Shown here: piece after piece, positions 14,678 to 60,600 of the stretch
How the letters are laid out: every line of letters starts with the position of its first letter
How positions within the stretch are numbered: the stretch's first letter is position 1
Assembly (NCBI GenBank): GCA_965222885.1
Contig: OZ244973.1
Span: 3,946,141-4,010,140 of the forward strand
DNA: 64,000 nucleotides
Reading direction: 5' to 3'
DNA from: Terriglobia bacterium
Lineage (GTDB): Bacteria > Acidobacteriota > Terriglobia > UBA7540 > JAPUME01
Position numbers and translations under genes: made by a program
Notes under the pieces: generated by a model
The model's database searches: none
The model's input: only the letters and a program-made list of their open reading frames with translations
What the model was told of the DNA's origin: nothing

Positions 14678-14767
14678 GATAGCAGCAGGCCCAAGAAGGT
14701 TCGGCTTTAGGGGGAGCGATGTCACCCTGCAGGCGAGGATTCTCTCCTTTCGGGTCCAGAAGGACTT

Positions 14768-17451: not shown

Positions 17452-17569
17452 CCAATGCGACGCCTCCCGCTCAAGGCAACCGTCCAGCAAAGCCATCCGC
17501 CTGACCCCTGCATTCTTCCCTCCCCTCCGACCCGCCAACCCTTGACTGGGCAAGAAGCCATGGAGGGCG

Positions 17570-18662
17570 CTACCGGACCCGGGCCAGCAAAAAGGCCTTC
17601 GTAAACATGGCGAGGTCGCCATCCAGGACCCGGTCCACGTCACCGATCTCCACCTTGGTGCGATGGTCCTTGACGAGCCGGTACGGGTGGAGGACATAGG
17701 ATCGAATCTGGCTGCCGAAGTCTATGTTGGCTTTGGAGGCTTCCAGCTTTTCGGTTTCGGCGCGCTTCCTTTGCAACTCGATCTCATAGAGTTTGGAACG
17801 CAGAATCTTCATGGCTATTTCGCGGTTGCGGTGCTGGGAACGTTCATTCTGGCACTGCGCCACGGTATTCGTAGGCAGGTGAGTGACGCGAACCGCCGAG
17901 TCGGTGACGTTAACGTGCTGCCCACCACTGCCTGAAGACCGATAGGTGTCAATGCGGATATCCTCGGGCCGAAGGTCGATTTCGATCTTGTCGTCGATCT
18001 CCGGGCTTACAAAAACGGAGGCAAAGGAGGTGTGGCGCCGCTTGGCGGCATCAAAAGGCGAAATACGAACCAGTCGGTGCACGCCGATTTCCGGGGTCAG
18101 CAGGCCGTAGGCTCTCTCTCCGGCGACGGTAAACGTAGCCGACTTCAATCCGGCCTCTTCCCCCGGCTGATATTCGTTCAAGGCCGCTCGAAAACCGCGC
18201 GACTCCGACCATCTTAGATACATACGCAGGAGCATTTCGGCCCAGTCCTGGGATTCGGTGCCGCCGGCACCCGGATGAATCGTGACAATGGCATTCGATC
18301 GATCATTCGGACCGCTGAGCAGGACGACACTTTCGATCTGATCCACGTCGGCTTCAGCCGCCGCCAAGCCGGCATCCAAATCGGCTGCCACTTCCTCACC
18401 TTCTCGGGCCAACTCCAAGTAGGTCTCCAGGTCGCTCAGTTTGGTTTCCAGTCGGGCTTGAGTCTCTACGTCCTGTTCCAGCGCACGGCGGGTCTGCGCG
18501 AGCCTTTGCGACCGTTCCCGGTCCGCCCAAACGTCCGGCGAGGCCAGCCGTTTCTCCACCTTTTCGAGCTCCCGCTTTTTAGCAGGAGCGTCAAAGAAAA
18601 CTCCGCAGGTCTTCCATGCGCGACTTCAGTCCGTTGAATCTCTTTTGATACTCGTCAATCAC
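17570..18662 (-). CDS. prfB: peptide chain release factor 2 (programmed +1 frameshift)
   Basis: The ORF track shows only the 329-aa downstream frame (SPF and GGQ motifs: SGSGGQHVN). Upstream, GTG at 18662 (RBS AAGGAG) opens 23 codons (MIDEYQKRFNGLKSRMEDLRSFL) that end at an in-frame TGA within CTT TGA C. A +1 shift continues DAPAKKRELEKVEKRLASPDVW. Confidence 0.9.
18590..18596 (-). promoter_or_regulatory. RF2 autoregulatory +1 frameshift site (CTT TGA C)
   Basis: The minus strand reads GGAG TTTT CTT TGA C. This is an SD-like GGAG, then the canonical CUU UGA C shift site. Confidence 0.85.
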
Positions 18663-18676
18663 GGTTTCTCCTTGTC

Positions 18677-32970: not shown

Positions 32971-33072
32971 CGGTAGCGCGCCAACGACATCGTGGCCAAC
33001 CCAGGTGTCATTCGAGTATGTCGCGGCGGACCTGGTTGGTAGCTGCGCATCTTTATTAAAATAAGCCTGAGC

Positions 33073-34185
33073 ATGAATACTCATATTCGTGAAATCTCCA
33101 TCGGCGCTGGTCGCGTGTTGAAGGCAACGCCAGTTCTGGATACCTATTGGCGGTTTGCGCAGGTACGGCAGAGTATTTTTCACAGACGGGTGCTAGGCGA
33201 GGCGCCGCCTTGGACCGACGATCCAGTTCTCGCTGAGCACCGATTCACGAACGCGTACCGTGCCGCTGATCGCGTGAGCCAGTTCCTGATCCGCGACGTG
33301 ATTTATTCGGAACTAGAGACACCCGAGGAAGTGTTTTTTCGCACGCTCTTCTTCAAGATCTTCAACCGGATCGAAACGTGGAACTCTGTCCGCAATGTTG
33401 TTGAGCAGATCACCTGGAATGATTTCGACTTCGAACGATACGCTCAGACTCTGGATGCGATCCGTGCGAATGGCACGAGCATTTATTCAAACGCTTACAT
33501 CATGCCCTCACCACCCTTTGGGGAACAACGCAAGCACCGCAACCATCTTCGTCTTTTAGAACAGATGATGCGCGATCGGTTGCCCGATAGGATTGCATCT
33601 GCGTCATCCCTGGAGGCTGTATTCCTGGCTCTGCAGCAGTACCCGTCGTTCGGGCGATTTCTGGCTTTTCAGTTTGCTATTGACCTGAACTACAGCACAA
33701 TCTGCGACCACTCTGAAATGGATTTTGTAGTTGCGGGACCCGGTGCGTCGGATGGAATCAGGAAATGTTTCGTCGACACTGCGGGCCTGACGGATGAAGA
33801 AGTCATACGGGTTGTCACTGAGCGCGCCAGCGAGGAATTCGCGCGCCTAGATATTGAGTTTGACGACCTATGGGGGCGCCCCCTTCAGCTAATCGACTGC
33901 CAGAATCTGTTTTGTGAGGTCGGCAAGTACGCAAGGGTCGTGCATCCTGAGTATCAAAGTGTTTCTGGTCGAACCCGAATCAAACAACGCTTCTCGCCGC
34001 TATCAAAGGCTCTGCCTCAGTGGTATCCGCCGAAGTGGGGAATAGAGCCCCCGATCACGCCAGCGGCAACTGAGAGTAATAGCTGCGCTATGGGAGGCGA
34101 ACCGCCGTTCGGCCTCGAAATCTTCGCTGGCCCCCGTCGGAGATCCAATCATTCTCGTGAGGCGACAGCGATAACCCAGTCCTGA
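33073..34185 (+). CDS. putative DNA base hypermodification family protein (5-hmdU-DNA-kinase helical-domain / aGPT-pyrophosphorylase-like); tentative
   Basis: 370 aa. The N-terminal pattern YWRFAQVRQSIFHRR..G..PPWTDDPVL..HRFTNAYRAADRVSQFLI and the later FLAFQFAIDLNYS match my memory of bacterial proteins annotated as nucleotide kinase domain / putative DNA base hypermodification proteins. No search was run. Confidence 0.35.
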   Translation: MNTHIREISIGAGRVLKATPVLDTYWRFAQVRQSIFHRRVLGEAPPWTDDPVLAEHRFTNAYRAADRVSQFLIRDVIYSELETPEEVFFRTLFFKIFNRIETWNSVRNVVEQITWNDFDFERYAQTLDAIRANGTSIYSNAYIMPSPPFGEQRKHRNHLRLLEQMMRDRLPDRIASASSLEAVFLALQQYPSFGRFLAFQFAIDLNYSTICDHSEMDFVVAGPGASDGIRKCFVDTAGLTDEEVIRVVTERASEEFARLDIEFDDLWGRPLQLIDCQNLFCEVGKYARVVHPEYQSVSGRTRIKQRFSPLSKALPQWYPPKWGIEPPITPAATESNSCAMGGEPPFGLEIFAGPRRRSNHSREATAITQS

Positions 34186-34450
34186 TCCAGCAAGAGGACG
34201 GTATGGACCGCACATCCGCCGCGGGCCACCCGCGTAGCGACAGGCGTCCAAGAGTGTGGCAACGTAAAATGCTCTGGCAGTGTGGTCAGTTCGACTTGTT
34301 CGAAGTCGATAGATTGTTGATCCTCTACTCTCAAGGCCTTGTAGACCGCCTCCTTCATGGCGAAATGGGCAGTGATGAAGAGCGTAGCTCTAGCACCGTC
34401 AACCTGCTTTAGCCGCGAGCGCTCCGCAGTAGTCAGTACTCGCTCCGCTA

Positions 34451-35570
34451 GTGGACTGTCGCAAAGTAACTTTATCTATGGAGAGGGCGTCTATACAGTA
34501 TGCCCTTTCAAAGCGAACCGTTCGTGTTGAGCCAACAGCAACGATCCGAACTCGAGGAGGTCGCCCGTTCGCAATCGCTGCCCGCCGGCTTTGTCTTACG
34601 CGCTCGAATCATCGCGTTACTCGCCGACGGCCTCTCCTACGCCGCCGTCGCCGACAAACTGGATTGCTCCACACCGACCGTCGGGAAATGGAAGAAACGC
34701 TTCCTCGAACACGGACTCGACGGACTGGAAACCCACCGTCCCGGGCAACCACCCTCGAAACTCACCGCCCGCTTGCGTGCCAAAATCCTCAATGCCACCC
34801 GCCGCCAGCCTGGCGACGGTTCGACCCACTGGTCCTGCCGCAAACTCGCCAAAGAACTCAGCATCAGCAAAGACTTGGTTCATCGTGTTTGGCGGGAAGC
34901 CGATCTCAAGCCGCATCGGTTGGAGCGCTACATGGCCTCCAACGACCCCGACTTCGAGCGCAAAGCTGCCGACATCATCGGTCTCTACCTCGATCCGCCG
35001 CGCCATGCCGCCGTGTTCTGCGTGGACGAAAAGACCGCTATGCAAGCGCTCGACCGTCGCGACCGCGTCTTGCCGCTGTCCCCTGGACGCGCCGAGCGGC
35101 ATGGTTTCGAGTACAAGCGCAACGGCACTCTCTCCCTCTACGCCGCCTTAAACACCAAGACTGGGCAGGTGCATGGGAAGACCGCCGCGCGTCACACCAG
35201 CCAGGACTGCGTCGAGTTTCTCGGTGAGGTCGTCGCCCGCTGCGAGCCCGACCAGGAGATTCACCTCATCCTCGACAACCTCTCGGCTCACAAGACCAAG
35301 CAGGTGGCAGCGTTCCTCGAGCGGCACCCCAACGTCGCCTTACACTTCACGCCGACTTACTCGTCGTGGCTGAACCAGGTCGAGTTGTGGTTTTCTAAGG
35401 TGCAACGCGACGTCATTGCCCGCGGCGTGTTCCCCTCCACCACCGATCTCGCCCGCAAACTCCGCCGCTACATCAACGCCTACTCGAAAGACGCCAAGCC
35501 TTTCCGCTGGAAATACTCCAGGCCCTCCCGCCGCATCCGCCATGGTAAAACTATCTCTGCGACAGTCCAC
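34451..35570 (+). mobile_element. IS630-family insertion sequence (copy 1)
   Basis: Terminal IRs gtggactgtcgcaaagta / gtggactgtcgcagagat. Flanking TA duplication at 34449-50 and 35571-72. The transposase stop codon uses the target TA. Confidence 0.85.
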
Positions 35571-35573
35571 TAG
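34500..35573 (+). CDS. IS630 family transposase
   Basis: 357 aa. N-terminal HTH region and a DDE core (FCVDEKTAMQALDR...ILDNLSAHKT...HFTPTYSSWLNQVELWF). Confidence 0.85.
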   Translation: MPFQSEPFVLSQQQRSELEEVARSQSLPAGFVLRARIIALLADGLSYAAVADKLDCSTPTVGKWKKRFLEHGLDGLETHRPGQPPSKLTARLRAKILNATRRQPGDGSTHWSCRKLAKELSISKDLVHRVWREADLKPHRLERYMASNDPDFERKAADIIGLYLDPPRHAAVFCVDEKTAMQALDRRDRVLPLSPGRAERHGFEYKRNGTLSLYAALNTKTGQVHGKTAARHTSQDCVEFLGEVVARCEPDQEIHLILDNLSAHKTKQVAAFLERHPNVALHFTPTYSSWLNQVELWFSKVQRDVIARGVFPSTTDLARKLRRYINAYSKDAKPFRWKYSRPSRRIRHGKTISATVH

Positions 35574-36097
35574 TTTCTGATCGGTCTCCTCCGCACACTC
35601 AACGTCAATCCCGACCCCCTCAGCGACAGTGGCCACCGCCAGCGTCAACGGTCCCTTTCGACTGATCGAACCGGCAAAGCCTAGTGGGACGATAGGTGCA
35701 CCCGAGGCCGCCGAGAGGATTGGGACGCGTGGAGCCGCAAGATGCGCGAGCGCTGTGGTCAGACACATCCGTCCGGCGATCCATCTACGACGATAGTCCG
35801 GCTCAAGTGCAGAGGCGTGTGTCAGTTCCGTTGGATGGAGTGTCTGGAGGGTTCGAGCCGTTGGGTTGTCTGGGCATATAGCGCAAATAAGCGTCCCAGC
35901 AGGACAGCCGGCAAGCTCTTCTGGGGTCCAGTACGGACGTGATCTGCCGAGAATTCCGGGAGGTGGGGGGGTAAGGGGCACAATGGATGCTACCAGATTC
36001 CAAGATGTTAGAAAACAAAAACTATTCCCTTGGCAAATGTTTGTTTATCGAACATAATGATGTTATTCGGTTCGACTGAATTGATCGGAGGTATTTA

Positions 36098-36493
36098 GTG
36101 AACTCGCTTCCTGTGGACAAGGTGCAGTTCGACGCTAAAGCACCTGAATTGAAGGCCCTCACGCGCGATTGGGCGGACCGGGAATGTACGCCCTTTAACG
36201 AGGCAGTCCGTCGCGCGGCCGGTCTTCCGAAAGGCAGCAGCGGTTCGATCTGGGAGATGCCTTCCATCGATTCGAAGCGCGTCGTCTCATTGCTCGTAGA
36301 ACTCGAGCCGGTTTTGAGCTGCAAGCTGCCATTGACGCTAGTCAAGCGTGGTGGCTACATTAGCACGGACGACCTTGTCGCCGACTTGATGCCTAAGATT
36401 CGCGGGTATTGTTCAGAGCCGTCGGCTCCGACCGCAAACCCACAGGATGGAGGCGCTACCGCGGTAGTGACCACCAGTTCGCCCATTTTCTAG
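36098..36493 (+). CDS. carrier-protein-like small protein (possible phosphopantetheine attachment site); tentative
   Basis: GTG start with a GGAGG RBS. The segment WEMPSIDSKRVVSLLVELEPVLSCKLPLTLVKRGGYISTDDLVADL aligns by eye with the PCP/ACP core (GGxDS-L..v.L...le...g..LP...lf...T...La..l). It is divergent from the PPTase gene. Confidence 0.35.
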   Translation: MNSLPVDKVQFDAKAPELKALTRDWADRECTPFNEAVRRAAGLPKGSSGSIWEMPSIDSKRVVSLLVELEPVLSCKLPLTLVKRGGYISTDDLVADLMPKIRGYCSEPSAPTANPQDGGATAVVTTSSPIF

Positions 36494-36502
36494 GGGGACA
36501 CC

Positions 36503-36850
36503 ATGGACACTGAAACAACGACTCTCGGTGCTCGACTTCGCGAGGCACGCGAGTATTTCCGGCTATCACAGGATGAAGTGGCCAGAGTAATCGGACTACC
36601 AAGGGCCGCGATCTCCCTAATCGAGAATGGGCGGCGCAAGGTCGCAGCGCTTGAGTTGAAGAAGTTCGCGGATTTGTACCAGCGACCCGTTACCGATTTC
36701 ACTGGAGATGTCGAAGTAGCCAGTCCAGTTCGGGAGACAGTTCAGCACTTGACGCGCGTCGCTACAAAGCTGGCAGAGGCTGACCAAGCTGAGTTGGTCC
36801 GGTTCGCTGAATTCCTTGGCTCGAGAGCAGCGAAGAAGCGGGAGGCCTGA
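36503..36850 (+). CDS. XRE-family helix-turn-helix transcriptional regulator
   Basis: LGARLREAREYFRLSQDEVARVIGLPRAAISLIENGRRKV is a canonical Cro/C1-type HTH. Confidence 0.85.
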   Translation: MDTETTTLGARLREAREYFRLSQDEVARVIGLPRAAISLIENGRRKVAALELKKFADLYQRPVTDFTGDVEVASPVRETVQHLTRVATKLAEADQAELVRFAEFLGSRAAKKREA

Positions 36851-36852
36851 CG

Positions 36853-37845
36853 ATGGCCGCGCGCGAAGCAATTCTCGAAGGCACTCAGGCAGCGCAACGC
36901 CTTCACGCTCAACTTGGTACACGCGCAGCCGTGGAACAAGGGGGGCTTTCGTATATCGATGTGTTTGCTGTTGCGATGGAATTGGGCGCCGTGTTGCTCT
37001 TTCGCAGGCTGGAGGGAATGTTGGGAGCATACCTCGCCGATTCCGGGATACCCGGAATTATTGTTTCGACGCAGCGGAGCCTCCACATCCAGCGCTTTAC
37101 AGTGGCCCACGAGATCGGCCATCTATTCATGCGTCACGACTTGAGCCTGGATCAGCAAGTTGGCCTCTGGAGGGGCTCGTCAAGAGACTTGGGAGAGGTT
37201 GCCGCTGATGCATTCGCTTCCGAGTTCATGTTGCCTCGATGGTTGTACGTTCACCACTCAGCTCGGCAGCGATGGGACAGTGCCGCTCTTCAGGATCCTC
37301 GCTTGGTTTATCAACTCTCGCTGCGCCTTGGCGCGAGCTATGACGCAACCTGCTGGGGCCTCAAAGGACATCGAATTCTAAAGCCACACGAGATGGCCAA
37401 GCTGTGGGATGTTGAGCCGAAGGAACTGAAGGTTGCTGCGCTTGCCGGCATGGCAGACCGAATAGATCCGTGGGCGGATGTCTGGGTGATTACGGAGGCT
37501 GACAACGGTTTGAGATTCCAGGGTGGCCCGAACGACATCGTTGTGTTTAGGATCCCGGAACGGGCGTCCGCTGGCTATCTCTGGGACGAATCACAACTAT
37601 GGAAAGACGGATTTGAATTGCTGGCCGATGATCGCGAAGAAGGAGATGAAGAGGAGTGTGGCAGTACGCTCACACGTGTGCTGGTGACGCGCGTGAGGGA
37701 ATCGTGCGAATGCCAAGTCTCACTCTCCGAGCGTCGCCCATGGCAACCGGACGAATCAGTCGGTAAGCTCGCCATCGCGTTCGACATGCAAGGTAAAGAG
37801 GATGGCCTGCCCAGGCTGGCTAGGAAGGCGATCGTCGCTGCATGA
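36853..37845 (+). CDS. ImmA/IrrE-family zinc metallopeptidase fused to a C-terminal chagasin-like (MEROPS I42) cysteine-peptidase-inhibitor domain
   Basis: HEIGH at aa 86-90 (nt 37108-37122) followed by AADAFASEFMLP. The C-terminal ~110 aa (nt ~37465-37797) align by eye with chagasin: NG.....G..V.F.IPERASAGYLW (cf. NPTTGFAW), ECGSTLTRVLVTRV (cf. GAGGTEHFHVTV), SERRPWQP (cf. YMRPWTGP). Confidence 0.7.
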   Translation: MAAREAILEGTQAAQRLHAQLGTRAAVEQGGLSYIDVFAVAMELGAVLLFRRLEGMLGAYLADSGIPGIIVSTQRSLHIQRFTVAHEIGHLFMRHDLSLDQQVGLWRGSSRDLGEVAADAFASEFMLPRWLYVHHSARQRWDSAALQDPRLVYQLSLRLGASYDATCWGLKGHRILKPHEMAKLWDVEPKELKVAALAGMADRIDPWADVWVITEADNGLRFQGGPNDIVVFRIPERASAGYLWDESQLWKDGFELLADDREEGDEEECGSTLTRVLVTRVRESCECQVSLSERRPWQPDESVGKLAIAFDMQGKEDGLPRLARKAIVAA

Positions 37846-38483
37846 GTATCATCGTCGATGTCGACTTGCGAAGCAAGCTCGGCGACACGCGTGATCAACG
37901 ACAGAGACCGACCTGCTTGGCATTCGCCGTGTCGGCCGCTCACGAGGCCAGTCGAGTGTCGAACGACTATCTCTCTACCGAGTTCCTCTTTTTTAGCGGT
38001 GCGCAGCGATCGCACCGCGATCCAAACCGTGGCCTTAGTAGAACCGCAGTCGCGGAAGCCCTGCGGGAAGATGGGCAACCTTGCGAGGCTGCGTGGCCGT
38101 ATCGGGTGGAACCGCCTGCCGCCGCGAATTGGAAGGCGCCGGAGAATTGCGAGCCCCTTCACAGGGCGACGGTCACATTTACCTCCGGGACCTTGACCGA
38201 GGTTGGACAGACGCTTCGCATCGGGGTGCCGGTAGTGCTAGTAGTATCGCTCACGATGGCAATGTATGTGCCCGATGCGAACGGAATTGTTCGGTCTCGT
38301 CAGAGTGACGTCACCACGACGAGCCGCCACGCATTGTTGGCGGTCGGTTTAGGACATGACAACGACGGTGAGTACATCTTGGTGCGCAACAGCTGGGGAG
38401 CGCGCTGGGGACTGCTGGGTCATGCTTGGTGTCACGGTTCCTGTTTCGTCGGCCGACTCCATTGGACAGGTACGATTTCCTAG
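37842..38483 (+). CDS. papain-like C1 family cysteine peptidase (no signal peptide)
   Basis: DQRQRPTCLAFAVSAAHE (oxyanion Gln plus catalytic Cys25), SRHALLAVGLG (His), YILVRNSWGARWG (Asn-Ser-Trp-Gly). ATGA overlap with the upstream inhibitor-fusion gene. Confidence 0.75.
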   Translation: MSIIVDVDLRSKLGDTRDQRQRPTCLAFAVSAAHEASRVSNDYLSTEFLFFSGAQRSHRDPNRGLSRTAVAEALREDGQPCEAAWPYRVEPPAAANWKAPENCEPLHRATVTFTSGTLTEVGQTLRIGVPVVLVVSLTMAMYVPDANGIVRSRQSDVTTTSRHALLAVGLGHDNDGEYILVRNSWGARWGLLGHAWCHGSCFVGRLHWTGTIS

Positions 38484-38495
38484 AGAGGCACGCAG

Positions 38496-39314
38496 ATGAA
38501 GCTGATCGCTGCTGATACTCTGGCACAAGCCTGGCTACAGGGTTGTGGTCACCTTCGCGACCTAGCTGGATGGGTGGATACGACTGTGGTGTTGCAGATC
38601 GCTGAGCCTACACTGGTTCGTTCCCAGGACCGGGCGGTCGCGGAGAGACTTAACGAGTATCTGGTAAGCCACGGCAGGTTTAGCAATCACACTGTGGCCG
38701 AAACGATTTTCCCAGGATACGAGTACGTACACAGGGGCGTTAAAGGCGTATACGAAGTGTATCCAGACGAGATCTATCCGAGAATCAAAGGCCACAAGGA
38801 TATGCGTCGGTGGGGAGCGTACGCATACAGGCTGTTGCGCCGGAGGGATGAGAGTGGAAAGGTCTACAATCCGCTGTCACAATGCATCAAAAAGATGAAG
38901 GACAAGCAACCAAAACGTGCAGCCTATGAGATGGGTTTGGGCTTTGACCTCGCGGTGTATGACGACAATGCAGACAGGGAGTCCAGGATGGGAGGGCCTT
39001 GCCTCAGCCATCTCAGTTTCAAGTTCATCGAGAAGAGAATTCAGCTGACCGCGCTCTATCGTTCGCACTACTATGTGCAGCGAGCGTACGGGAATCTGCT
39101 CGGGCTTGCTAGGTTGCAGTCGTTCGTCGCTTACCAGGTCGGTGTCGAGCCTGGACCGCTCGTGTGTCATTCGACAATGGCCGTCCTGGAGCACGGAAAG
39201 CCGTGGGGCTGGTCGAAAGGCGAGGTTTCGCCTCTTCTCAGCGAATGTGAGGCCCTTATGAAAGGCCAGACCCCGACCGCCTTTGTCGCGCAGTCAATGG
39301 GCCATCATGCCTGA
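38496..39314 (+). CDS. thymidylate synthase / dNMP hydroxymethylase-fold protein
   Basis: GGPCLSHLSFKFIEKRIQLTALYRSHYYVQRAYGNLLGLARLQSFVAYQVGVEPGPLVCH parallels the ThyA core [39 protein letters not shown]...G......GD.H. The catalytic-Cys context is retained. Confidence 0.6.
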   Translation: MKLIAADTLAQAWLQGCGHLRDLAGWVDTTVVLQIAEPTLVRSQDRAVAERLNEYLVSHGRFSNHTVAETIFPGYEYVHRGVKGVYEVYPDEIYPRIKGHKDMRRWGAYAYRLLRRRDESGKVYNPLSQCIKKMKDKQPKRAAYEMGLGFDLAVYDDNADRESRMGGPCLSHLSFKFIEKRIQLTALYRSHYYVQRAYGNLLGLARLQSFVAYQVGVEPGPLVCHSTMAVLEHGKPWGWSKGEVSPLLSECEALMKGQTPTAFVAQSMGHHA

Positions 39315-40554
39315 ACCCAAGAGCACGAGTGGTGTTGTATTGCCCTCCGATATTACGTGGGACAGTGGCGTGCACCTTCTTGAATATCAGCGGGCCGTTC
39401 GCGAAACTGACCGTCTGCCACAAGACGATTTAGGCACTCCGGTGCTAGGTCTATTCGGCGAGGTTGGCAGTTTGCTGTCTGTCGTCAAGAAGAGGAAGCG
39501 TGACGCCGTAGCCTATGTTGGCTATGACGCCGCGATCATTGAGGAACTCGGCGATGCGCTTTGGTACTTCACCTGCATTGCGAATCGCGTAGCGCTAGAC
39601 CTGTCTGTCCTCGCGCAGGGGGTGTTTTGCGATGCGAGTGACCGGGATGAGTGCCAGGCGGATGAGTTTGGCACGTGGGGTGACGTCCAGTCCGCTCGTC
39701 CGCTGGCCGAAGACGAGGATCTGTTCGCCTCGATGAGCCTCCTCGCTGGCCTGACGGGGAAACTCGTTGGCGGCTTGCGCGGTGGACTTGTCGAAGGCCG
39801 GGAGCGGTTGTCTGGAGACATGAGCGCTGTTCTTCGATCGTTGATTGGGTTCGCCACCGCAGCTGACCTCGATCTGGACGTGGCAGCTCGCCAAAACCTC
39901 GAGAAGATCTTCAGTCGGTATCCTCGGGAACTCAAATACCCGCCGCTCCCGGACGATAACGTGACGTTACACGAGCGGCTTCCGCGTCGATTCGACCTGT
40001 TCGTTGGCGAACACGATGTCAATGGCAAAACCTACGTGATGCTGATCTGCAACGGCGTGATCATAGGAGACCGTGTGACCGACAACAAAGCTGAGGAAGA
40101 CGACTATAGGTTCCACGATGTCTTTCACGTTGCCTATGCAGTTCATTTGAGTTGGTCTCCGATCCTGCGCGGGCTGTTCCGGGTAAAGCGAAAGAGCATG
40201 CCTGGGGTTGACGAGAACGAAGACGGGGCGCGCGCCGGTCTCATAGAGGAAGGCGTTGCTACGTTTATTTTTGGTCGTGCCCTTGAACAGAACCTGTTCG
40301 AAGATCTAGAGCACCTTGACTTCGATCTACTGAAACTAGTTAGAGGTTTCGTTCGTGGGTTCGAGGTCGAGCGCTGTGCGCTGTGGCAGTGGGAGCGAGC
40401 GATCCTTGATGGATTCAAGGTGTACCGCGAGTTCAAGAAGAACCGCCGCGGATATGTAGTTGCGGACCTAGTCGCCCACACCATCGAGTTTAGGGCAGCA
40501 GGCCGGGACGAGGACGGACTCAATTCTGTTGCAATCGTGGGTCGCCGCGAATAG
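39307..40554 (+). CDS. MazG-like all-alpha NTP pyrophosphohydrolase domain protein with a large uncharacterised C-terminal half
   Basis: LGLFGEVGSLLSVVKKRKRD......EELGDALWYFTCIANRVALDL is a MazG/HisE-type EExxE/D helix pair. ATG 39307 overlaps the upstream stop (ATGCCTGA). An alternative in-frame start lies at 39283. Confidence 0.6.
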   Translation: MPEPKSTSGVVLPSDITWDSGVHLLEYQRAVRETDRLPQDDLGTPVLGLFGEVGSLLSVVKKRKRDAVAYVGYDAAIIEELGDALWYFTCIANRVALDLSVLAQGVFCDASDRDECQADEFGTWGDVQSARPLAEDEDLFASMSLLAGLTGKLVGGLRGGLVEGRERLSGDMSAVLRSLIGFATAADLDLDVAARQNLEKIFSRYPRELKYPPLPDDNVTLHERLPRRFDLFVGEHDVNGKTYVMLICNGVIIGDRVTDNKAEEDDYRFHDVFHVAYAVHLSWSPILRGLFRVKRKSMPGVDENEDGARAGLIEEGVATFIFGRALEQNLFEDLEHLDFDLLKLVRGFVRGFEVERCALWQWERAILDGFKVYREFKKNRRGYVVADLVAHTIEFRAAGRDEDGLNSVAIVGRRE

Positions 40555-40627
40555 CGACAAATGGTGATTATGAGGGGCTCGTTCGGCCCCGGAGGTCAAC
40601 GCTTAGGATGTGTAGAAAGGCACCTCT

Positions 40628-41443
40628 GTGAGCTTCTGGAGTGGGGAAACTCTTGCTGCGCGGCTTCCTGGACTGGTCGAGCCGTTCAAAGAGTCAAAGA
40701 TCGACTGTGCTGCGTACACGCTCCAAGTTGGCCCAGAAGTGTATGTCTCCCCCTCCATCGTCGACGATGCCTCAACAACGAAGGTGCGGCTGAGAGAGGG
40801 CCAGTCCTTCGCTATACCTGCGGGTCAGTTTGCGTTCTTACTGACAGAAGAGCGAATTCGCGTACCAAGTTCCGCGTTGGCATTCATCTCCATCAAGGCG
40901 CGCATTAAGTTTAAGGGTCTTGTGAATGTGTCGGGATTCCACGTTGATCCTGGATATGAGGGCCGACTCATCTTCTCGGTGTTCAACGCAGGTCCCGCAC
41001 CTGTCCATCTTGCTCGGGGCGACGACTGTTTCCTGATGTGGTTCGCCAGCCTGGATGTGTCCTCGGAAGAGATCAAAAAGATGCCTGGTTTCGATGCCAT
41101 TCCGTCTAGCCTGATCAATCCCATCGCTGGGGAGATTCAGTCTTTCGCGGGACTGCTTGAGAAGATTCGCTCGACAGAAAAACGGATAGATGTGATCGAC
41201 AAGGCCCAATCGAAGATATTGGCCATTGCCACTCCCATCTTCGCGGCGTTATTGACACTGGCGATCATGCTTGGATTTCGTGCTTGTGAGGCTCCACCGA
41301 CTGTTTTACAGGTTGCGCCAGTCGGCGGATCATTGCCCCAACTCTCGGACCCTGGTCCATCATCGGCTTCGCAACCTGGGGCACCGGACGCAGCACCTCC
41401 ACAGGGCCAGGCTCCACCAGACCAGTCGGTGGCCGCCCCTTAG
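40628..41443 (+). CDS. dCTP deaminase/dUTPase-superfamily (Dcd-like) protein with a C-terminal TM helix and Pro/Gln/Ala-rich tail
   Basis: The N-terminal 145 aa follow the Dcd pattern (I.PF....I....Y.L.VG.E......L..G..F.IPAGQFA.LLTEE.I.VP......I..K.....GL.N.SGFHVDPGYEGRLIFSVFNAG..PV.L..GD....MWF). ILAIATPIFAALLTLAIMLGF (nt 41216-41278) is a predicted TM helix. Confidence 0.65.
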   Translation: MSFWSGETLAARLPGLVEPFKESKIDCAAYTLQVGPEVYVSPSIVDDASTTKVRLREGQSFAIPAGQFAFLLTEERIRVPSSALAFISIKARIKFKGLVNVSGFHVDPGYEGRLIFSVFNAGPAPVHLARGDDCFLMWFASLDVSSEEIKKMPGFDAIPSSLINPIAGEIQSFAGLLEKIRSTEKRIDVIDKAQSKILAIATPIFAALLTLAIMLGFRACEAPPTVLQVAPVGGSLPQLSDPGPSSASQPGAPDAAPPQGQAPPDQSVAAP

Positions 41444-41696
41444 GAGCAAGAGGGACGCGACTGACGCCCAAAGTATATCTTGGCCTCGCAGGCCTCAAGG
41501 CGATCATTCAGGCTGCATCCGCCTAGTAGTACCGGCTTGTGTTATTGGTTGGCCCGGCAGGATTCTAAAAGAGCGACCTGCTCAAGGCCCCGGCCGAGGG
41601 ACGTTGCCGAGTGGGCGGTGTGAAATTGGTGCTGATTAGAATGGTTGACGCCGATCGATTTGTTAAACGGCCAAGCTTTGTCAAGTTAAGATATTG

Positions 41697-41827: not shown

Positions 41828-42870
41828 GACCAGACCGATCTTTTGTACCAATCCTAGGGAGAGAGTTTACATCACAGCCTGGGGCTGCGAAATCGGTTCT
41901 GGGAGAAGAAATGGATTACCGGCCCCCGGCGCCGGGGGCCGGTAATCCAGCGCCGAGTGCGGTCTCCGGGTGTTGTATTCCTCCCGCCATTGCTCCATCA
42001 CGATCTGGGCCTCCTGCAACGAGTAGAAGATCTCCCCGTTCAGGCATTCATCCCGCAACTTCCCATTGAAACTCTCACCATACCCGTTCTCCCATGGACT
42101 ACCTGGTTCGATGTACAACCTTCCGGTCCCGAGATTCCCCAGCCATTGGCGCAACTTCCGGGCGACGAACTCCGGGCCGTTATCGGATCGAATGTGCTCC
42201 GGGATCCCTCGCCACAGCATCACCTCCGACAACGTCTCGATCACCTCCAGGCTGCCCATCCTTCGCTCCACTCGGATCGCCAGACATTCCCGCGTATACT
42301 CGTCCAGCAGCGTCAGCAACCGCAGCGTCCTTCCATCGTGGGTTCTGGCGCTAACAAAGTCATAGCTCCAGACGTGGTTGCGATGTTCCGGGCGCAGTCT
42401 CACACAGGAACCGTCGTTCCGCCAGAGTCGTCTTCGCGGCCGTTGTTTTGGCGGCCCTTTCAAACCTTCCCCACGCCAGATTCGCTGCACCCGATCCTTG
42501 CCTACCGACCAGCCTGCGTTCCGCAGCTACGCCGTGATTCGTCGATAGCCGTACCGCCCGTATTGCGCCGCCAGAGCGACCACCGCCCGGGTCAGCTCAT
42601 CCTCGTCCAGTCGATGAATCGGCTGGTATCGTTGCGTCCCCCTCCATGGCCCCAGCAGCCGGCAGGCGTGCCGTTCCGACAGGCCATGCTTCCCCCGTGC
42701 CCGCTCCACCGCACAACGTCGCCGCTCAGGGCTCAGAAGTTTCCCGGGGCCACCTCCTGCAAGACTTGCTTCTCCAGCGACAACTCCGCCACCAGCCGCT
42801 TCAACCGCGTGTTTTCCTTCTCCAACTCTTTCAGCCGTTTCGCCTGATCCAGCTTCGTTAGTGGCTCAGG
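41828..42870 (-). mobile_element. degenerate IS3-family (IS407-like) element: right IR + orfB with in-frame TAG + 3' end of orfA; left part missing
   Basis: Terminal tgaccagaccgatcttttgtacca. orfB is split by TAG at 42527-42529 (..YGYRRITA*LRNAGW..). The slippery GGGAAAC is at 42739-42745 (minus). Homology to the intact copy's orfA stops near 42860-42880, and AT-rich unrelated sequence follows. Confidence 0.75.
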
Positions 42871-45801: not shown

Positions 45802-46896
45802 CTAGTGTACTGTCCCGGAAATATATGAGCAAAGTCGTTCGACCTTAGCGAGGATGGATTCGGCCGTGGCGGTCCAGACGAAAGGACTGGTGTTGGCGTT
45901 GTAATGTTCGACGAAGCGCTCGATGTTACGGACGAGAGCCTTGACGCTGGAGAAGGAACCTCGGCGAATGGCCTTCTGGGTAATGATGCCGAACCAGCGT
46001 TCGACTTGGTTGAGCCAGGACGCATAGGTTGGGGTGAAATGAACGTGGTAGCGGGGACGCCGAGCGAGCCAAGCGCGGACTTTGGGATGTTTGTGAGTAG
46101 CGTAGTTATCGACGATGAGATGGACGTCGAGGTTGTGCGGCACACTGCCGTCGATCTGACGCAGGAAAGTGAGGAACTCCTGATGACGGTGTCGCGGTTT
46201 ACAGCGGGTGATGACTCTCCCGGTGGCCACATCGAGAGCCGCGAACAGAGTGGTCGTGCCGTGACGTTTGTAATCATGGGTGACGCCTTCGACGTAGCCG
46301 AGGCCCATGGGGAGAACGGGCTGAGTTCGCTGAAGAGCTTGAACCTGGGTCTTCTCATCGACCGAGAGCACCACGGCGTGGTCCGGGGGATTGAGGTAGA
46401 GACCGACGATGTCGCGGACTTTCTCGACGAAGAACGGGTCGTTGGAAATCTTGAAATGCCGCTGGCGATGCGGCTGGACGCCGAACAGATCGAACCACCG
46501 CTGGACCGTGCTCTTTGAGACTCCCGTGTGTTCCGCCATGGAACGCACGCTCCAGTGCGAACGATCGGGAGGTTCGGTTTGCAGGGCCGTGTTGATGACT
46601 TCCGCAACACGTTCATCCTCATGCGTGCGGGGGCGTCCGGGACGCAGTTCATCGTGTAGTCCGGGGATTCCATGTTCACGATAGCGCTTTCGCCACTTGC
46701 CCACGGTCGTATTGGTGACACCCAGACGCCGGGCCACGGTAGAGCCGGGAACGCCTTCGGCGCAGGCCAGCACAATCTGGGCCCTCAGCACCAGACTATG
46801 CGGCAAGGTTCGGGAGCGGGCGAGGCTCCCCAGTTCCGATTCCTCACTCTCACTGAGAGTGAGGGGAGTAACGGGGCGACCGCGTGGCATGGGCAT
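45802..46896 (-). CDS. IS630 family transposase
   Basis: The start is placed at MPMPRGRP, inside the element, whereas the track ORF runs on to 47196 outside the IR. DDE core LSVDEKTQVQALQR...IVDNYATHKH...HFTPTYASWLNQVERWF. The stop uses the target TA. Confidence 0.85.
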   Translation of the reverse strand: MPMPRGRPVTPLTLSESEESELGSLARSRTLPHSLVLRAQIVLACAEGVPGSTVARRLGVTNTTVGKWRKRYREHGIPGLHDELRPGRPRTHEDERVAEVINTALQTEPPDRSHWSVRSMAEHTGVSKSTVQRWFDLFGVQPHRQRHFKISNDPFFVEKVRDIVGLYLNPPDHAVVLSVDEKTQVQALQRTQPVLPMGLGYVEGVTHDYKRHGTTTLFAALDVATGRVITRCKPRHRHQEFLTFLRQIDGSVPHNLDVHLIVDNYATHKHPKVRAWLARRPRYHVHFTPTYASWLNQVERWFGIITQKAIRRGSFSSVKALVRNIERFVEHYNANTSPFVWTATAESILAKVERLCSYISGTVH

Positions 46897-46953
46897 ACCT
46901 CCAGAGGCCAAAGGTTGCCCATTAATATATCGCTTATTACCGGGACAGTACAC
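45805..46953 (-). mobile_element. IS630-family insertion sequence (copy 2)
   Basis: IRs gtgtactgtcccggaaata / gtgtactgtcccggtaata. TA duplication at 45803-04 and 46954-55. Confidence 0.85.
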
Positions 46954-47224
46954 TAGCCAGCCGGATGTCTTATTCCGATGATCTTCTTCATCAACTTCAA
47001 GAAGTACGGCTGCCAGATAGGAGAGAAATGCGGCCAGAGGTTTTGTGAGGTCTCGGGGTTCCGTTTCCATATCAAGCCAGAATATCCACGCCATAGCAGA
47101 CAGTCCTGAGTGGGCCAGGCGAGCCTGGGGATGAGGCGAGCCTGTACCCCCTTGCTGGCTCACACTGGGCTGAGGTCTGCTATGGCAAGTAGTCACCTTA
47201 TCCTGGCCTCAAGGGGGGTTTCCA

Positions 47225-53073: not shown

Positions 53074-53928
53074 GTGGAGCGTGTCTGCCAGACCTTGGGA
53101 GTGTCGGAGTGTCGGGCGTGTCGAGTGCTGAGGCAGTACCGATCCACCCAGCGGCATCGAACCTTGACACCACAGGATGAACCGCGACTGGTGACCCGGA
53201 CGCTGCAGTTAGCCGGCGAGTACGGTCGATACGGCTACCGGCGGATCACGGCGCTGTTGCGACGGGAGGGGTGGAGGGTGAACCATAAGCGGGTGGAGAG
53301 AATCTGGAGGCAGGAGGGACTGAAAGTGCCGCAGAAACAACCCCGGAAAGGCCGCCTGTGGTGGAACGATGGGTCGTGTCTTCGGTTAAGACCGTGCTGG
53401 CGGGATCATGTCTGGGCGTACGATTTTGTGGCAGATCGAACCCGGGACGGTCGTCCCCTGAAGATGTTGACGGTGGTGGATGAGTACACGCGAGAATGTT
53501 TGGCCATCGACGTAGAACGGCGAGCTGATTCGATACGTGTCTTGGAACGGCTGGCAGCCTTGTTTGTGGAGCGAGGAGTTCCCGATTACCTTCGCTCGGA
53601 TAATGGATCCGAGTTCACAGCACGCTTGGTTCGGAACTGGCTGGAGCGGGTAGGGGTAAAGACCTTGTTCGTCGAGCCGGGGAGCCCATGGGAAAACGGG
53701 TATGTAGAATCGTTGAACGGGAAGTTTCGAGACGAGTTTCTCAATAGAGAGATCTTCTACACCTTGCGGGAAGCGAAGGTGTTGATGGAGGGATGGCGAC
53801 GGGAGTATAACAAAGTTCACCCGCACAGCGCGTTGGGCTACCGGCCGCCAGCCCCGGAAACGATCCTGCCGTTACCGCCGGGTTCCGCTCCGCTCCACCC
53901 GGCTGCAACGGCTTATGGACTAACATAA
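53074..53928 (+). CDS. IS3 family transposase OrfB (rve integrase core), out of the expected frame
   Basis: YGYRRITALLRREGW...WAYDFV...VVDEYTRECL...LRSDNGSEFTA...PGSPWENGYVESLNGKFRDE. The frame is +1 relative to orfA, not -1. Confidence 0.8.
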   Translation: MERVCQTLGVSECRACRVLRQYRSTQRHRTLTPQDEPRLVTRTLQLAGEYGRYGYRRITALLRREGWRVNHKRVERIWRQEGLKVPQKQPRKGRLWWNDGSCLRLRPCWRDHVWAYDFVADRTRDGRPLKMLTVVDEYTRECLAIDVERRADSIRVLERLAALFVERGVPDYLRSDNGSEFTARLVRNWLERVGVKTLFVEPGSPWENGYVESLNGKFRDEFLNREIFYTLREAKVLMEGWRREYNKVHPHSALGYRPPAPETILPLPPGSAPLHPAATAYGLT

Positions 53929-57601: not shown

Positions 57602-60600
57602 TTAGTCTCGGGCCGTCGTTTGGTTCTTGGCCTGCGGCGGCGCATAGGTCAGTCCGAAAACGTTATCCGTCAGCCATCGCCGGAACGACTCGTTGTCTGT
57701 GAACTGCTTGAAGAGTTGCATGTCGTCGTTCAGCACGGCAGTCATCACACGCCTCAGGGCTTCGTCATGCTCGATCCGGGCGTTCTGCCTGTCGGAGTTC
57801 TCCCGTGCGTTGCGGTAGGCGGTGTCCTCGGCAACCCTGGCTGGAATCTCATTCGTAATGAGGCGGCGAACCCGGTCTTGGTCCTCCCAGGGGATATCCC
57901 CGAACTGGTCGTTGAAGGTCTTGAGGATTTTCGAGAGGCGATCGAGTTCGGGTTCCGGCCTGGAGCCGCCGCCGCTGGTCGGCACCGGCTCGATCTCGAC
58001 ATCCGCGTCCGCTAGTTGGACGTGTATCGCCGCCTTCTTCTCGACCCGGTAGCTGTCCATGTCGATGGACTCAAGGATGCCTTTGGACAGATCCTCTTCC
58101 ACGGGCGCGGGGAGCTTCGGCACGAGGAAGTTCAGGAAGATCGAGAGCTTCTCCCACTCGGCGTTCGTGTAGGGCAGGATCGAGGCGAGGAACCCGTACG
58201 CGCGCACAAACGCCTTGGCTTTGCCCTTGAAGTCCACCTGCCCGTCCTCGTCGAGCTGCTCCTTGTAGACCGCGACGCAGGCATCGAGGATGGGATCGAG
58301 CCGGTCGCGGTCGGCCCCTCCTAGATAGAGCGTCACGAGCTGCTCGATCTCCGCGTCGGAATACACCTGACAGCCGTCGAGTTCAGCCTTGAGGTCATGC
58401 AGCTTGTTGGGGTCCGTCTCCTCGCTGAGGATCGTCGTCCGGTAGTAGTCGGCGAACGCCTCCCGGATGGTATCGGCACCGTTCATGAAGTCGAGCACAA
58501 ACGCGTCGTGTTTCTGCGGGTGCGCCCGATTGAGACGCGACAGCGTCTGGACCGCCTTGATCCCGGACAAGATCTTGTCTACGTACATCGTGTGCAACAG
58601 CGGCTCGTCGTACCCGGTCTGGAACTTGTCGGCACAAATGAGGAACCGATACGGGTCCTGCTGGATCTCGTCGGCGATCCGCCCGGACGGGAAGCTATTG
58701 AGGGACACCTCACTGACCTGCACCCCGCCATGCTCGTGCTCGCCCGAGAAGGCGACGATGGCCCGATACGGACTCTTGCGCTCCAGCAGGTACTGCCGGA
58801 TCGCGTGGTAATACTGGATCGCGCGCTCGATGCCGCCGGTCACCACCATCGCGCGGGCCTTGCCACCGATCTTGTTGAGCGCCAGCACCTGTTCGTGGAA
58901 GTGGTCCACCATGATCTCGGCCTTGATCTGGATGGCATGTTCGTGGCTCTCCACGTAGCGGCGCAGCTTCTTCCGGGCGCGTTTGGTGTCGAACTCGGGA
59001 TCCCCCTCGATCTTCTTGATGAGCTTGTAGTAGCTCGCGACCGGTGTGTAGTGCCGCAGCACGTCCAGGATGAAGCCCTCCTGAATCGCCTGCTTCATGG
59101 TGTAGCTGTGGAAGGGGCGGTGCCTGGTCTGCCCGTCCGCCTCGCCGAAGATCTCCAGCGTCTTGTTCTTGGGCGTGGCGGTGAAGGCGAAGTAACTCGC
59201 GTTTGGTAGGAGCTTCCGCGCCGCCATGATGCGGTTGATCGTGTCCTCGGTGGTCTCGTCGTCCTCCTCTGCGCCCGCCTCGGATAGCGCCATGTTGACC
59301 GCAGCTGCGGTCCTGCCGCCCTGGCTCGAATGCGCCTCGTCGATGATGATGGCGAAACGCCGGCCCCGCTGCTCGTTCCCGATTTCGTCGAGGATGAATG
59401 GGAACTTCTGCACCGTCGAGATGATGATCTTCTTGCCGCTCTCGATAAACCTGCGGAGGTCACCCGATCGGTCGGCATGGCCGACGGTGGCCCCGACTTG
59501 GGCGAACTGCTTGATCGTGTCGCGGATCTGCTTGTCGAGGAGGCGTCGGTCGGTGACCACGATGATGGAGTCGAACACCCCTGCGTCGTTCTTCCTGAGT
59601 CCGATCAACTGGTGGGCGAGCCAGGCGATGGAGTTGGACTTCCCGCTGCCGGCCGAATGCTGGATGAGATATCGCTTCCCGGCGCCGTGCCGGCGCGTAT
59701 CAGCCAAGAGCCGCCGTACTACGTCGAGTTGGTGGTAGCGCGGCCAGATCTGCTCCTTCCTCTTCTTGCCCGTCTTCTCATCCTTGGTCTCGACGACCTG
59801 CGCGTAGTTCTCCAGGATGTTGGTCAGCCCGTCACGGGTGAGCAGGCGCGTCCAGAGGTAGTCGGTCTTGAGGCCATCCGGGTTAGGCGGGTTCCCGGCG
59901 CCGTCATTCCAGCCCTGATTGAAGGGCAGGAACCACGAGGTCTTTCCCTTGAGGTGCGTGCAGAACCGCACTTCGTGGTCGTCCACCGCGAAGTGCGCCA
60001 CCGAGCGGCCGAACTCGAAGAGCTTCTCGCGGGGGGCGCGGTCACGCTTGTACTGCTCCACTGCGTCCTCGACCGTCTGCTTGGTAAGACTGTTCTTCAG
60101 CTCGAACGTAGCGATCGGTAGGCCGTTGATGAACAGACCGAGGTCAAGCGCTCGCTGGGTTTCGTCGCGGTTGTAGCGGAGCTGGCGTGTGACGGAGAAG
60201 CGGTTCTGCGCGTAGCGTTCAGTGGCAACGGGGTTTCCGGGAGACGGCGTGCCGTAGAAGAGTTCGACATGATGTGGTCCGTCCTTGACTCCCTTGCGGA
60301 GTACGTCGATCACGCCGCGTTTGCTGACCTCGCCCTGGAGGCGCGCCAGAAACTTGCGCCGGGTCGGGCTATCCTGACCCAGGTCCAGTGATTCGGCAGC
60401 GTTCGTCTGGGTGGTGCAGAGGAAGGCGGAAAGCTGAGCGAGGTCCACGCAGTACTCCCGGTCGTAGTCCTGCGGGTCCCCGCAGACCCAGCCAGAGCCG
60501 TAGCTGGATGGCCGCTCCCGCACGACGCCCTCCTGAGTCGTGTCGCAGGGTTGGCCCGTCAGGGCCGTGCAAGATGAGGCGCTCAAGCCCCCTCTCGCTG

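Follow-up and report, generated by a model that had tools for sequence, protein, structure and literature searches.

Carrier proteins and phosphopantetheinyl transferases (PPTases) are hallmarks of the pathways that make fatty acids, polyketides, non-ribosomal peptides and teichoic acids, and to our knowledge the carriers of these classical pathways always work with a loading enzyme. What, then, might a PPTase gene and a carrier-like gene be doing side by side among genes for peptidases and pyrimidine-nucleotide enzymes? The question is raised by a 64,000-nucleotide stretch of the genome of a Terriglobia bacterium (GenBank assembly GCA_965222885.1, contig OZ244973.1, positions 3,946,141 to 4,010,140 of the forward strand), hereafter called the window, to which all coordinates refer unless another locus is named. 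Here, an insertion sequence (IS) of the IS630 family cuts the PPTase gene in two, and an open reading frame (ORF) on the other strand encodes a small protein of 131 aa with the look of a carrier. We report that the two genes co-occur as part of one mobile cassette, that the PPTase has been inactivated in the window, and that the 131-aa protein is, to judge from the sequences of its relatives, very probably a genuine carrier protein of a highly divergent kind. The reading that we hold to be probable, if well short of assured, is that of an unclassified carrier branch which, together with its dedicated PPTase, belongs to a mobile and inducible anti-phage or anti-mobile-element cassette, the PPTase being knocked out in this particular copy.

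A PPTase gene interrupted by an IS630 element

A DDE_3 and helix-turn-helix (HTH) transposase, terminal inverted repeats (IRs) and the duplication of a target TA are the defining features of the IS630 family. All of them are found in the element at 34451..35570 (plus strand): its terminal IRs are identical over 13 bp (GTGGACTGTCGCA), the target TA is duplicated (34449-34450 and 35571-35572), and an intact transposase ORF of 357 aa (34500..35573) matches the Pfam model DDE_3 (E 1.6e-26) and, in its N-terminal part, the homeodomain-like models HTH_23, HTH_32 and HTH_29. The element is present as a single copy in the whole window. Its transposase ORF crosses the right IR (35568-35573) and stops at a TAG that consists of the duplicated TA and the flanking G; the stop codon is contributed by the insertion site and not by the element, which ends at 35570.

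A preliminary description of the window, made by a model from the letters, had proposed that deleting 34451..35572 (the IS plus one TA) fuses two minus-strand ORFs into one Sfp/EntD-type PPTase, and that the insertion was recent and simple. Both proposals were borne out. The deletion yields a single minus-strand ORF of 236 aa, which reads ...GSISRKG...GIDVECAEETDQK up to the junction and LAERVLTTAERSRL...MKEAVYKAL... beyond it. With ACPS (E 9.9e-16) and 4PPT_N (E 1.3e-10), both above the Pfam gathering scores, and with the Mg/CoA-binding motifs, this repaired ORF has the two-domain architecture of Sfp/EntD-type enzymes, and its best partial matches in NCBIfam are EntD, Npt and PptT. Alignment of the PPTase relatives showed that the motifs GSIS(H/R)K, G(I/V)D(V/L)E and KEAxxK are kept, with S105, I106, K109, G124, D126, K169, E170 and K174 invariant and E128 conserved in at least 90% of the sequences. 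The IS has inserted after K137: the 5' fragment (35571..35981, minus strand; residues 1-137) retains 4PPT_N and the GSISRK and GIDVE motifs, and the 3' fragment (34149..34450, minus strand; residues ~138-236) retains KEAVYK. Because the acidic metal-binding motif (D126, E128) is in this way separated from the KE motif (K169, E170, K174), neither fragment can be active, and the gene has been inactivated by the IS.

Uninterrupted alleles, which the preliminary description had suggested looking for in related genomes, were found in two relatives, the loci L001 and L034, both of them on genome-scale contigs (4.93 Mb and 4.86 Mb, respectively) with an IS-free cassette. L001 is collinear over the insertion site and encodes an intact PPTase of 237 aa, and the sequence of L034 across the site (TCGCTCCGCTAGTTTCTGATCGG) matches the repaired junction exactly, with one TA. 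Given the perfect IRs and TA duplication on the one hand and the empty site with its single TA on the other, the insertion is clean and recent. Besides, a short-read contig bearing an identical carrier gene ends ~24 bp within the right end of the IS.

The PPTase clade matches the carrier family described below in rarity, with 10 close homologues before the next drop to E 5e-14. The 3' end of the PPTase gene overlaps that of the convergent HMUDK_hel gene by 37 nt (34149..34185), and the same overlap appears in the gene calls of L001 (9167-9203) and L034 (2172-2208). In the Myxococcales metagenome-assembled genome (MAG) of L007 (1991-2393), the PPTase gene is apparently frameshifted and truncated; there are ambiguous bases, and this could be an assembly error.

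A probable divergent carrier protein beside the PPTase gene

The ORF for the 131-aa protein (36098..36493, plus strand) begins with a GTG at 36098, preceded by a GGAGG motif, and is divergent from the PPTase gene, as the preliminary description had it; the spacing to the PPTase start at 35981, given there as 117 nt, measures 116 nt. The protein contains the motif P-x-I-D-S-K (I57-D58-S59-K60), with the codon of Ser59, the predicted phosphopantetheine site, at 36272-36274. Its tail past residue ~110 is predicted to be disordered. A word-indexed search of 5.8 billion proteins returned 21 relatives, and an exhaustive profile search of 1.84 billion representative proteins returned 209 at E <= 0.001, nearly all of them 100-135 aa long. 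Among 138 members, which share 19-93% identity, Ser59 and Gly86 are the sole invariant columns, and Asp58, Gly85 and Tyr87 are conserved in at least 90%; residues 85-87 make up a GGY motif ahead of the last helix. The carrier-like core around an Asp-Ser (DS) serine that the preliminary description had quoted is present as stated. In the close subfamily, W25, R28, E29, C30, C75 and C105 are invariant as well. No relative of the protein was found in 50,697 phage records.

The only direct match of the 131-aa protein itself was NCBIfam DltC, at E 0.033 and far under the cut-off, with S59 at model position 36. The link to carriers emerges at the level of the family. When 150 members were scanned singly against Pfam, 16 matched the PP-binding family PF00550 (E <= 0.05, best 1.5e-4), and no other Pfam family recurred if the PPTase domains of two fused ORFs are set aside. 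A hidden Markov model (HMM) built from DltC alone picked up 20 of the 150 at E <= 0.01, with the serine in register; 20 rounds of residue shuffling gave 0/150 each, and the reversed set gave none. When a profile built on the close subfamily was searched against the sequences of the PDB, three of its top four matches were DltC, DS aligned on DS, and hhalign against a DltC alignment gave P = 4.6e-4 to 6.7e-4 over helices II-IV, again with the modified serine in register. AlphaFold models built on alignments of 22 and 138 sequences (pLDDT 76 and 83) consist of a long N-terminal helix, a loop, a helix starting from Ser59, a short helix and a final helix, which places the serine of the (D/H)S motif at the N-terminus of helix II in both. 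The top Foldseek matches of these models in the PDB are mostly carriers (PptT-ACP, DltC, Pks13 ACP), none of them significant.

Collectively, the sequence evidence is good, with no single curated threshold being reached, and it supports a remote homology of this family to PP-binding proteins around an invariant serine. Of the expectation that the protein would prove homologous to carriers, the family-level connection to PP-binding and DltC stood, and a Pfam match or a significant Foldseek hit for the window protein did not follow.

Like DltC and other stand-alone type II carriers (PF00550), the 131-aa protein is small and helical, with D-S at the start of its second major helix; it shares with DltC, its best match by sequence in both the PDB and NCBIfam, the helix II-IV pattern DSxxxVxLLxxLExxxGxxLP. 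Another shared feature is a PPTase gene beside its own. Unlike these carriers, it lies under the Pfam thresholds, and it has a lysine after the serine, the conserved GGY and a conserved N-terminal helix of 34 residues. In addition, no ligase such as DltA and no synthase accompanies it, and its setting is made up of nucleotide enzymes and peptidases, not of a pathway for lipids, polyketides, peptides or teichoic acids.

Compared with its counterpart in L001 (10001-10396), the window carrier gene differs by 10 nonsynonymous and 3 synonymous changes, a dN/dS of ~1.09 as against 0.11-0.39 for the eight other cassette genes (Fisher p = 0.02), with the counts being small and both lineages having changed. 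Relaxed selection on the carrier after the loss of the PPTase was considered and rejected as a firm claim on account of these small counts and of derived changes on both lineages. N34 and S74 set the window allele apart: at least 90% of the close subfamily have D34, and position 74 is mostly G there. A sub-branch of carriers in L027 and L029, both without a linked PPTase, has the canonical D-S-L motif (LPxIDSLGVVSGL). A further family member, P0041, sits on an 876-bp contig that provides no gene context.

Linkage of the PPTase and the carrier-like gene in related loci

The window proteins were mapped onto 34 related loci. In about 20 of the 24 that could be assessed, a PPTase gene is kept next to the carrier gene, over carrier identities of 30-92%, in two orientations and with two PPTase classes, as had been expected of relatives if the pair belonged together; chance adjacency is excluded by this synteny. 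The PPTase gene is adjacent in the window, in L001-L009, and in L011, L012, L014, L015, L017-L019, L021-L023 and L025. The listed loci from L011 to L025, along with L013 and L020, where partial PPTase copies lie at the contig edge, constitute a second subfamily (carriers 30-40% identical) with an Sfp-type PPTase gene directly upstream on the same strand. In the subfamily of the window, with members in Sorangium sp. So ce1014 (NZ_CP150356.1) and in one MAG each of Polyangiaceae and Myxococcales, the PPTase gene is divergent and beside the carrier gene. In L008, the PPTase and HMUDK_hel genes have shifted to the far end, still within the cassette. In L030, on plasmid pRlX4 of Rhizobium ruizarguesonis (CP140872.1, 584188-594628), the upstream gene encodes a single-domain PPTase of the AcpS type (annotated acpS; Pfam ACPS, E 5.7e-11). 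The adjacency has outlasted inversion, relocation and a swap of PPTase class.

The preliminary description had remarked that no synthase, ligase or condensation gene is nearby, and this holds in every copy: adenylation, ligase, ketosynthase and condensation genes are absent from the window and from the ~30 loci examined.

Two of the relatives combine both proteins in one chain. P0053 (656 aa) is an Sfp-type PPTase fused directly to a carrier domain, and in P0112 a carrier fragment is joined to a PPTase; these could be either real fusions or artefacts of assembly or gene calling.

Composition and mobility of the cassette

In a blastn comparison of the window with L001, positions 32971-34452 and 35566-41672 align at 96.7% identity, and the flanking sequences show no relationship; upstream of the cassette, L034 differs from both. 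Because 32971..41672 (IS included) is the sole stretch common to these relatives, and the flanks differ, the comparison shows the cassette (~7.6 kb) to be a mobile unit. It comprises nine genes, namely those for an HMUDK_hel protein, the PPTase, the carrier, an XRE regulator, an ImmA/I42 protein, a C1 peptidase, a thymidylate-synthase-like protein, a MazG/MazG_C protein and a dCTP-deaminase-like protein. Apart from the PPTase gene, these are intact in the window and 92-98% identical to L001. The conserved order, kept in ~30 loci from Myxococcota, a Rhizobium plasmid and metagenomes, runs from the PPTase through carrier, XRE, ImmA/I42 and C1 to the thymidylate-synthase-like gene and is followed by a variable nucleotide module, which elsewhere holds a thymidylate kinase, a canonical thymidylate synthase, a small MazG-like protein, a TIR, an Nmad2 or a UDG-like gene.

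The HMUDK_hel protein (33073..34185, plus strand; 370 aa) matches Pfam PF18723 over its full length (E 7.8e-108), with the helical domain at residues 19-295. Its relatives, named 'putative DNA base hypermodification protein' by NCBI, are present in most cassettes at varying positions. HMUDK_hel, MazG_C and Nmad2 are said to have been defined, most likely, by Iyer et al. 2013 and Burroughs et al. 2015. Between the PPTase and carrier genes lies a divergent control region (35982..36097), in which a sigma-70-like promoter, TTGGCA-17-CATAAT (36030-36058, plus strand), is suggested by consensus match alone; an imperfect inverted repeat (36048-36058 / 36065-36075) overlaps it and is a candidate operator for the XRE protein.

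Wherever a locus extends beyond the carrier gene, the next gene is that for the XRE-type HTH regulator (36503..36850, plus strand; 115 aa; HTH_3, E 7e-12). It adjoins a gene for an ImmA/IrrE (M78) metallopeptidase with the motif HEIGH (36853..37845, plus strand; Peptidase_M78, E 8.8e-12), which resembles CapP (PADLOC capP, E 9.6e-17) and carries at residues 227-301 a C-terminal chagasin-like domain (Inhibitor_I42, E 2.9e-5, under the gathering score); the I42 match of the L031 protein has an E of at most 1e-5. The next gene, whose start overlaps the ImmA stop, encodes a papain-family C1 cysteine peptidase of 213 aa (37842..38483, plus strand; Peptidase_C1, E 3.5e-12) that has no signal peptide or propeptide and has the Cys, His and Asn motifs PTCLAFA, RHALLAVG and VRNSWG in its translation. 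Together, 36853-38483 look like an inhibitor-protease pair fused to a CapP-like regulator, judging by domain matches.

The gene that always follows the C1 peptidase gene encodes a divergent protein of predicted thymidylate-synthase fold (38496..39314, plus strand; 272 aa, and 262-272 aa across loci), which matches TIGR03283 (E 3.4e-13, under the cut-off) and a PHROG thymidylate synthase (E 5.7e-7). It is followed by a MazG-like NTP pyrophosphohydrolase with MazG_C (39283..40554, plus strand; 423 aa; MazG_C, E 2.9e-71; MazG, E 5.2e-5) and by a protein of the dCTP-deaminase/dUTPase fold (40628..41443, plus strand; 271 aa; DCD, E 5.4e-14; TIGR02274, E 5.1e-18). The latter is extended at its C-terminus by ~70 residues, which include a hydrophobic helix that probably spans the membrane (ILAIATPIFAALLTLAIMLGF) and a tail rich in Pro and Ala; in L005, the protein is only 212 aa long. 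No useful match came from searching PDB sequences with the HMUDK_hel, MazG/MazG_C and thymidylate-synthase-like proteins, and Rfam and tRNA scans of the window were empty.

The cassettes have transposases, PIN/PhdYeFM and HEPN/NTase pairs, restriction-modification genes, MobA/MobL, and caspase-family and pYEATS genes as neighbours, which are typical of variable islands. In the window, the 3' surroundings hold an IS3-type (rve) transposase (41867..42490), an IS630-like transposase (45802..47196), a further rve transposase (53074..53928) and a type I restriction R subunit (57602..60586). In L029, the type I restriction gene hsdR lies directly upstream and a UDG-like gene inside the cassette. In L030, genes for an alpha/beta hydrolase, a caspase-family and a pYEATS-domain protein lie directly upstream, and the places of the thymidylate-synthase-like and MazG genes are taken by three small hypothetical ones, among them perhaps a split thymidylate-synthase-like gene. 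L008 (Polyangiaceae MAG; 13225-15768, 17405-19131) is a second cassette struck by a mobile element: its MazG gene is split by a ~1.4-kb insertion with a transposase-like ORF, at the end opposite to the PPTase and HMUDK_hel genes.

Discussion

The cassette can be read as follows. The 131-aa protein would found a small, unclassified branch of the phosphopantetheine-binding (acyl carrier protein, peptidyl carrier protein and DltC) superfamily, and the Sfp/EntD-type PPTase would move 4'-phosphopantetheine from coenzyme A (CoA) onto Ser59 at the start of predicted helix II; homology, the invariance of Ser59 and the conserved adjacency argue for the PPTase as the dedicated activator of the carrier. 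By analogy with CapH/CapP, the XRE protein probably represses the divergent promoters, to be removed by the CapP-like ImmA protein upon DNA damage or infection. The chagasin-like domain, a likely inhibitor, would restrain the cytoplasmic papain-like peptidase. The nucleotide enzymes might convert dCTP to dUTP or dUMP and on to a C5-modified dUMP, followed by rephosphorylation, with pyrimidine deoxynucleoside triphosphates (dNTPs) being converted or depleted, and the HMUDK_hel protein might act on the nucleotide product or on DNA. The cassette would then be an inducible system against phages or mobile elements, and probably an anti-phage system, that works by altering or depleting pyrimidine dNTPs or by modifying DNA bases.

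The thiol arm of the holo-carrier would serve as a required cofactor. Because every copy is devoid of adenylating and ligase genes, the arm may, speculatively, act as a free thiol or be charged independently of ATP, by transthioesterification from a papain-like acyl-enzyme or by PPTase transfer from an acyl-CoA. Two specific versions of ATP-free charging strike us as long shots. In one, the C1 enzyme would cleave a protein and hand the acyl-enzyme thioester to the carrier arm; in the other, the arm would trap an electrophilic C5-methylene intermediate of the thymidylate-synthase-like protein, which would tether a pyrimidine nucleotide to the carrier. Without a housekeeping PPTase to substitute, the carrier of the window would stay apo.

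Several observations weigh against this interpretation. The 131-aa protein itself has no Pfam match (E <= 0.1) and none in PADLOC or PHROG; the hhalign probability against DltC is merely 27-33%; and with both models Foldseek reached a best E of ~0.8 (>= 0.78) at a TM-score of ~0.5 and a root-mean-square deviation of 6-8 A, which is not significant. Carriers usually have a hydrophobic residue after the modified serine, where this protein has a lysine, and helix I of known carriers is much shorter than its N-terminal helix and less well conserved. No PPTase was found in the available flanking sequence of the carrier-XRE-ImmA-C1 core of L026, L027 and L029, so that a dedicated PPTase is not strictly required and a housekeeping enzyme may sometimes substitute. 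The N-terminal half of the fusion P0053 resembles mis-joined DUF1611 and alanine-racemase pieces, and its contig is not on record. The defence role is deduced from domain content, mobility and neighbourhood; PADLOC (2023) recognised nothing in the cassette save capP; and the chemical role proposed for the arm is unsupported, no loading enzyme being present.

Among known systems, the nucleotide module comes closest to DS-4 ('NTTI'), a DefensePredictor system cloned from E. coli that was scored as protective against phage and consists of a thymidylate synthase, an adenylate-kinase-like protein, HMUDK_hel, TIR and Nmad2, the mechanism not being discussed in the paper (PMC13092281). The HMUDK_hel protein of the window is 26% identical to the product of DS-4 gene 3 (E 8e-32; PMC13092281 supplement), and a gene of the thymidylate-synthase superfamily is common to both systems, as is one for a nucleotide kinase or pyrophosphatase; the thymidylate-synthase-like proteins of the two gave no BLASTP alignment. 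Variants of the cassette that share more with DS-4 occur in L005, with TIR and Nmad2 genes, and in L031, with thymidylate kinase, HMUDK_hel and a canonical thymidylate synthase. Pfam detects no TIR or Nmad2 in the window, and its nucleotide module is related to DS-4 without being a member. It also counts against our interpretation that DS-4 lacks PPTase, carrier, XRE, ImmA and C1 peptidase and yet works. At the other end of the cassette, an XRE gene followed by that for an M78 metallopeptidase with HExxH corresponds to the CapH/CapP pair at the head of cyclic oligonucleotide-based anti-phage signalling (CBASS) and other defence operons, from which the cassette differs by the additional chagasin-like domain, the papain-like peptidase next to it and the carrier gene ahead of XRE. 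In literature searches on PPTases or carriers in connection with defence or conflict, we found no such pair described for a defence or nucleotide-modification cassette, and a prior mention is possible.

Could the pair be nothing but the remains of a fatty-acid or secondary-metabolite locus that came to lie there by chance? Sfp/EntD-type PPTases normally serve non-ribosomal peptide synthetase (NRPS) and polyketide synthase (PKS) clusters, and the partial matches of the repaired enzyme to EntD, Npt and PptT fit that background. However, neither the window nor any of ~30 related loci holds a synthase, the adjacency is kept down to 30% carrier identity and across phyla, and the cassette moves as a single unit with the pair inside it; we regard this explanation as extremely improbable. 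Sfp/EntD-type enzymes within biosynthetic clusters, such as Gra-ORF32 of the granaticin cluster (PMC9813960), resemble the cassette PPTase in the 4PPT_N and ACPS architecture, in having GSIS(H/R)K, G(I/V)D(V/L)E and KEAxxK as motifs, and in a dedicated place beside a presumed carrier substrate. The cassette PPTase differs in that its cluster holds no PKS, NRPS or fatty-acid synthase. It belongs to a tiny, cassette-specific clade (~10 close members), is replaced by an AcpS-type enzyme in one lineage and is split by the IS in the window. A different objection is that the 131-aa protein might not be phosphopantetheinylated at all and could be a small helical adaptor or regulator, such as an ImmA activator or an anti-repressor, with a fortuitous DS motif, the PPTase having another target or being itself an effector. 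The missing direct Pfam and structural matches, the atypical DSK, the long conserved N-terminal helix with W25, R28, E29 and C30 invariant in the close subfamily, the constant first position ahead of the XRE-ImmA pair and the three cassettes without a PPTase would suit such a protein. They would leave unexplained why Ser59 is invariant in 138 members that vary at almost every other position, why every weak database match converges on carriers in the same serine register with none from shuffles, why the adjacency to a PPTase persists through inversion, relocation and class change, and why no other cassette protein resembles a PPTase substrate. On balance, this alternative appears quite improbable to us, and fortuitous similarity, which the preliminary description had kept as a second option, is unlikely in view of the family-level homology, the invariant Ser59 and the PPTase linkage.

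If the carrier assignment is accepted, the question becomes what the cassette does. Along the lines of the base or protein modification suggested in the preliminary description, it might, instead of serving defence, be a self-directed pathway for the hypermodification of nucleotides or DNA bases that travels on a mobile element, as an epigenetic or anti-restriction mark, with the holo-carrier delivering an acyl, aminoacyl or peptidyl group and the papain-like enzyme acting as the transferase. Delivering a group is the usual job of a carrier protein, the relatives of HMUDK_hel are annotated as putative DNA base hypermodification proteins, and Nmad2 and UDG-like genes turn up in cassette variants. 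Moreover, 5-hydroxymethyl-deoxyuridine (5-hydroxymethyl-dU) is the entry point of thymidine hypermodification, and the set of dCTP-deaminase-like, MazG, thymidylate-synthase-like and kinase-like enzymes parallels the phage routes to it (PMC8989533). The cassette shares with the phage pathways, which employ a 5-hydroxymethyl-dU kinase (5-HMUDK) and aGPT-Pplase/AADT, the name of the HMUDK_hel domain and the logic of its pyrimidine enzymes (PMC8989533, PMC5889632). Nevertheless, a Pfam search of the cassette proteins detected no P-loop 5-HMUDK domain, no aGPT-Pplase/AADT and no pyridoxal-phosphate or radical-SAM enzyme, and an enzyme to load the carrier is present in no copy. The phage pathways use free amino acids and not a carrier (PMC8989533, PMC5889632), and the cassette is cellular or plasmid-borne, without a carrier relative among the phage records. 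The CapP-like ImmA and XRE control, the TIR of L005, the caspase-family/pYEATS, restriction-modification and toxin-antitoxin neighbours and the protection against phage by the related DS-4 speak for a conflict system, and hypermodification of this kind seems to us unlikely. We give a little more room, tentatively, to the possibility that the IS insertion is not disabling, with a housekeeping AcpS- or Sfp-type PPTase of the host modifying the carrier and the loss being neutral or modulatory. The cores without a PPTase in L026, L027 and L029, the interchangeable PPTase class seen in L030 and the intact remainder of the window cassette favour it. Its weakness is that a linked PPTase has been kept in most assessable loci, which suggests that housekeeping enzymes are usually insufficient; the dN/dS of the carrier gene, the highest in the cassette, also tells against it, with the reservation stated above about small counts and changes in both lineages.

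Returning to the dedicated carrier-PPTase pair within a conflict system, the present work defines a family of ~200 proteins that is captured by no Pfam model, and from sequence comparison we rate it as a new branch of carrier proteins and a new upstream module on a DS-4-like system, with potential for new chemistry. The module is attached to a class of nucleotide systems that is experimentally protective and mechanistically unexplained. With its IS-split allele and the intact copies of the sister genomes, the locus provides a natural pair of knock-out and wild type for the PPTase. A PPTase/carrier pair that stands without a loader among peptidases and pyrimidine-nucleotide enzymes implies an unrecognised use of the phosphopantetheine arm, and if that arm were indeed charged without ATP, thiotemplate chemistry would extend beyond lipid, polyketide and peptide synthesis and into an inducible conflict system.

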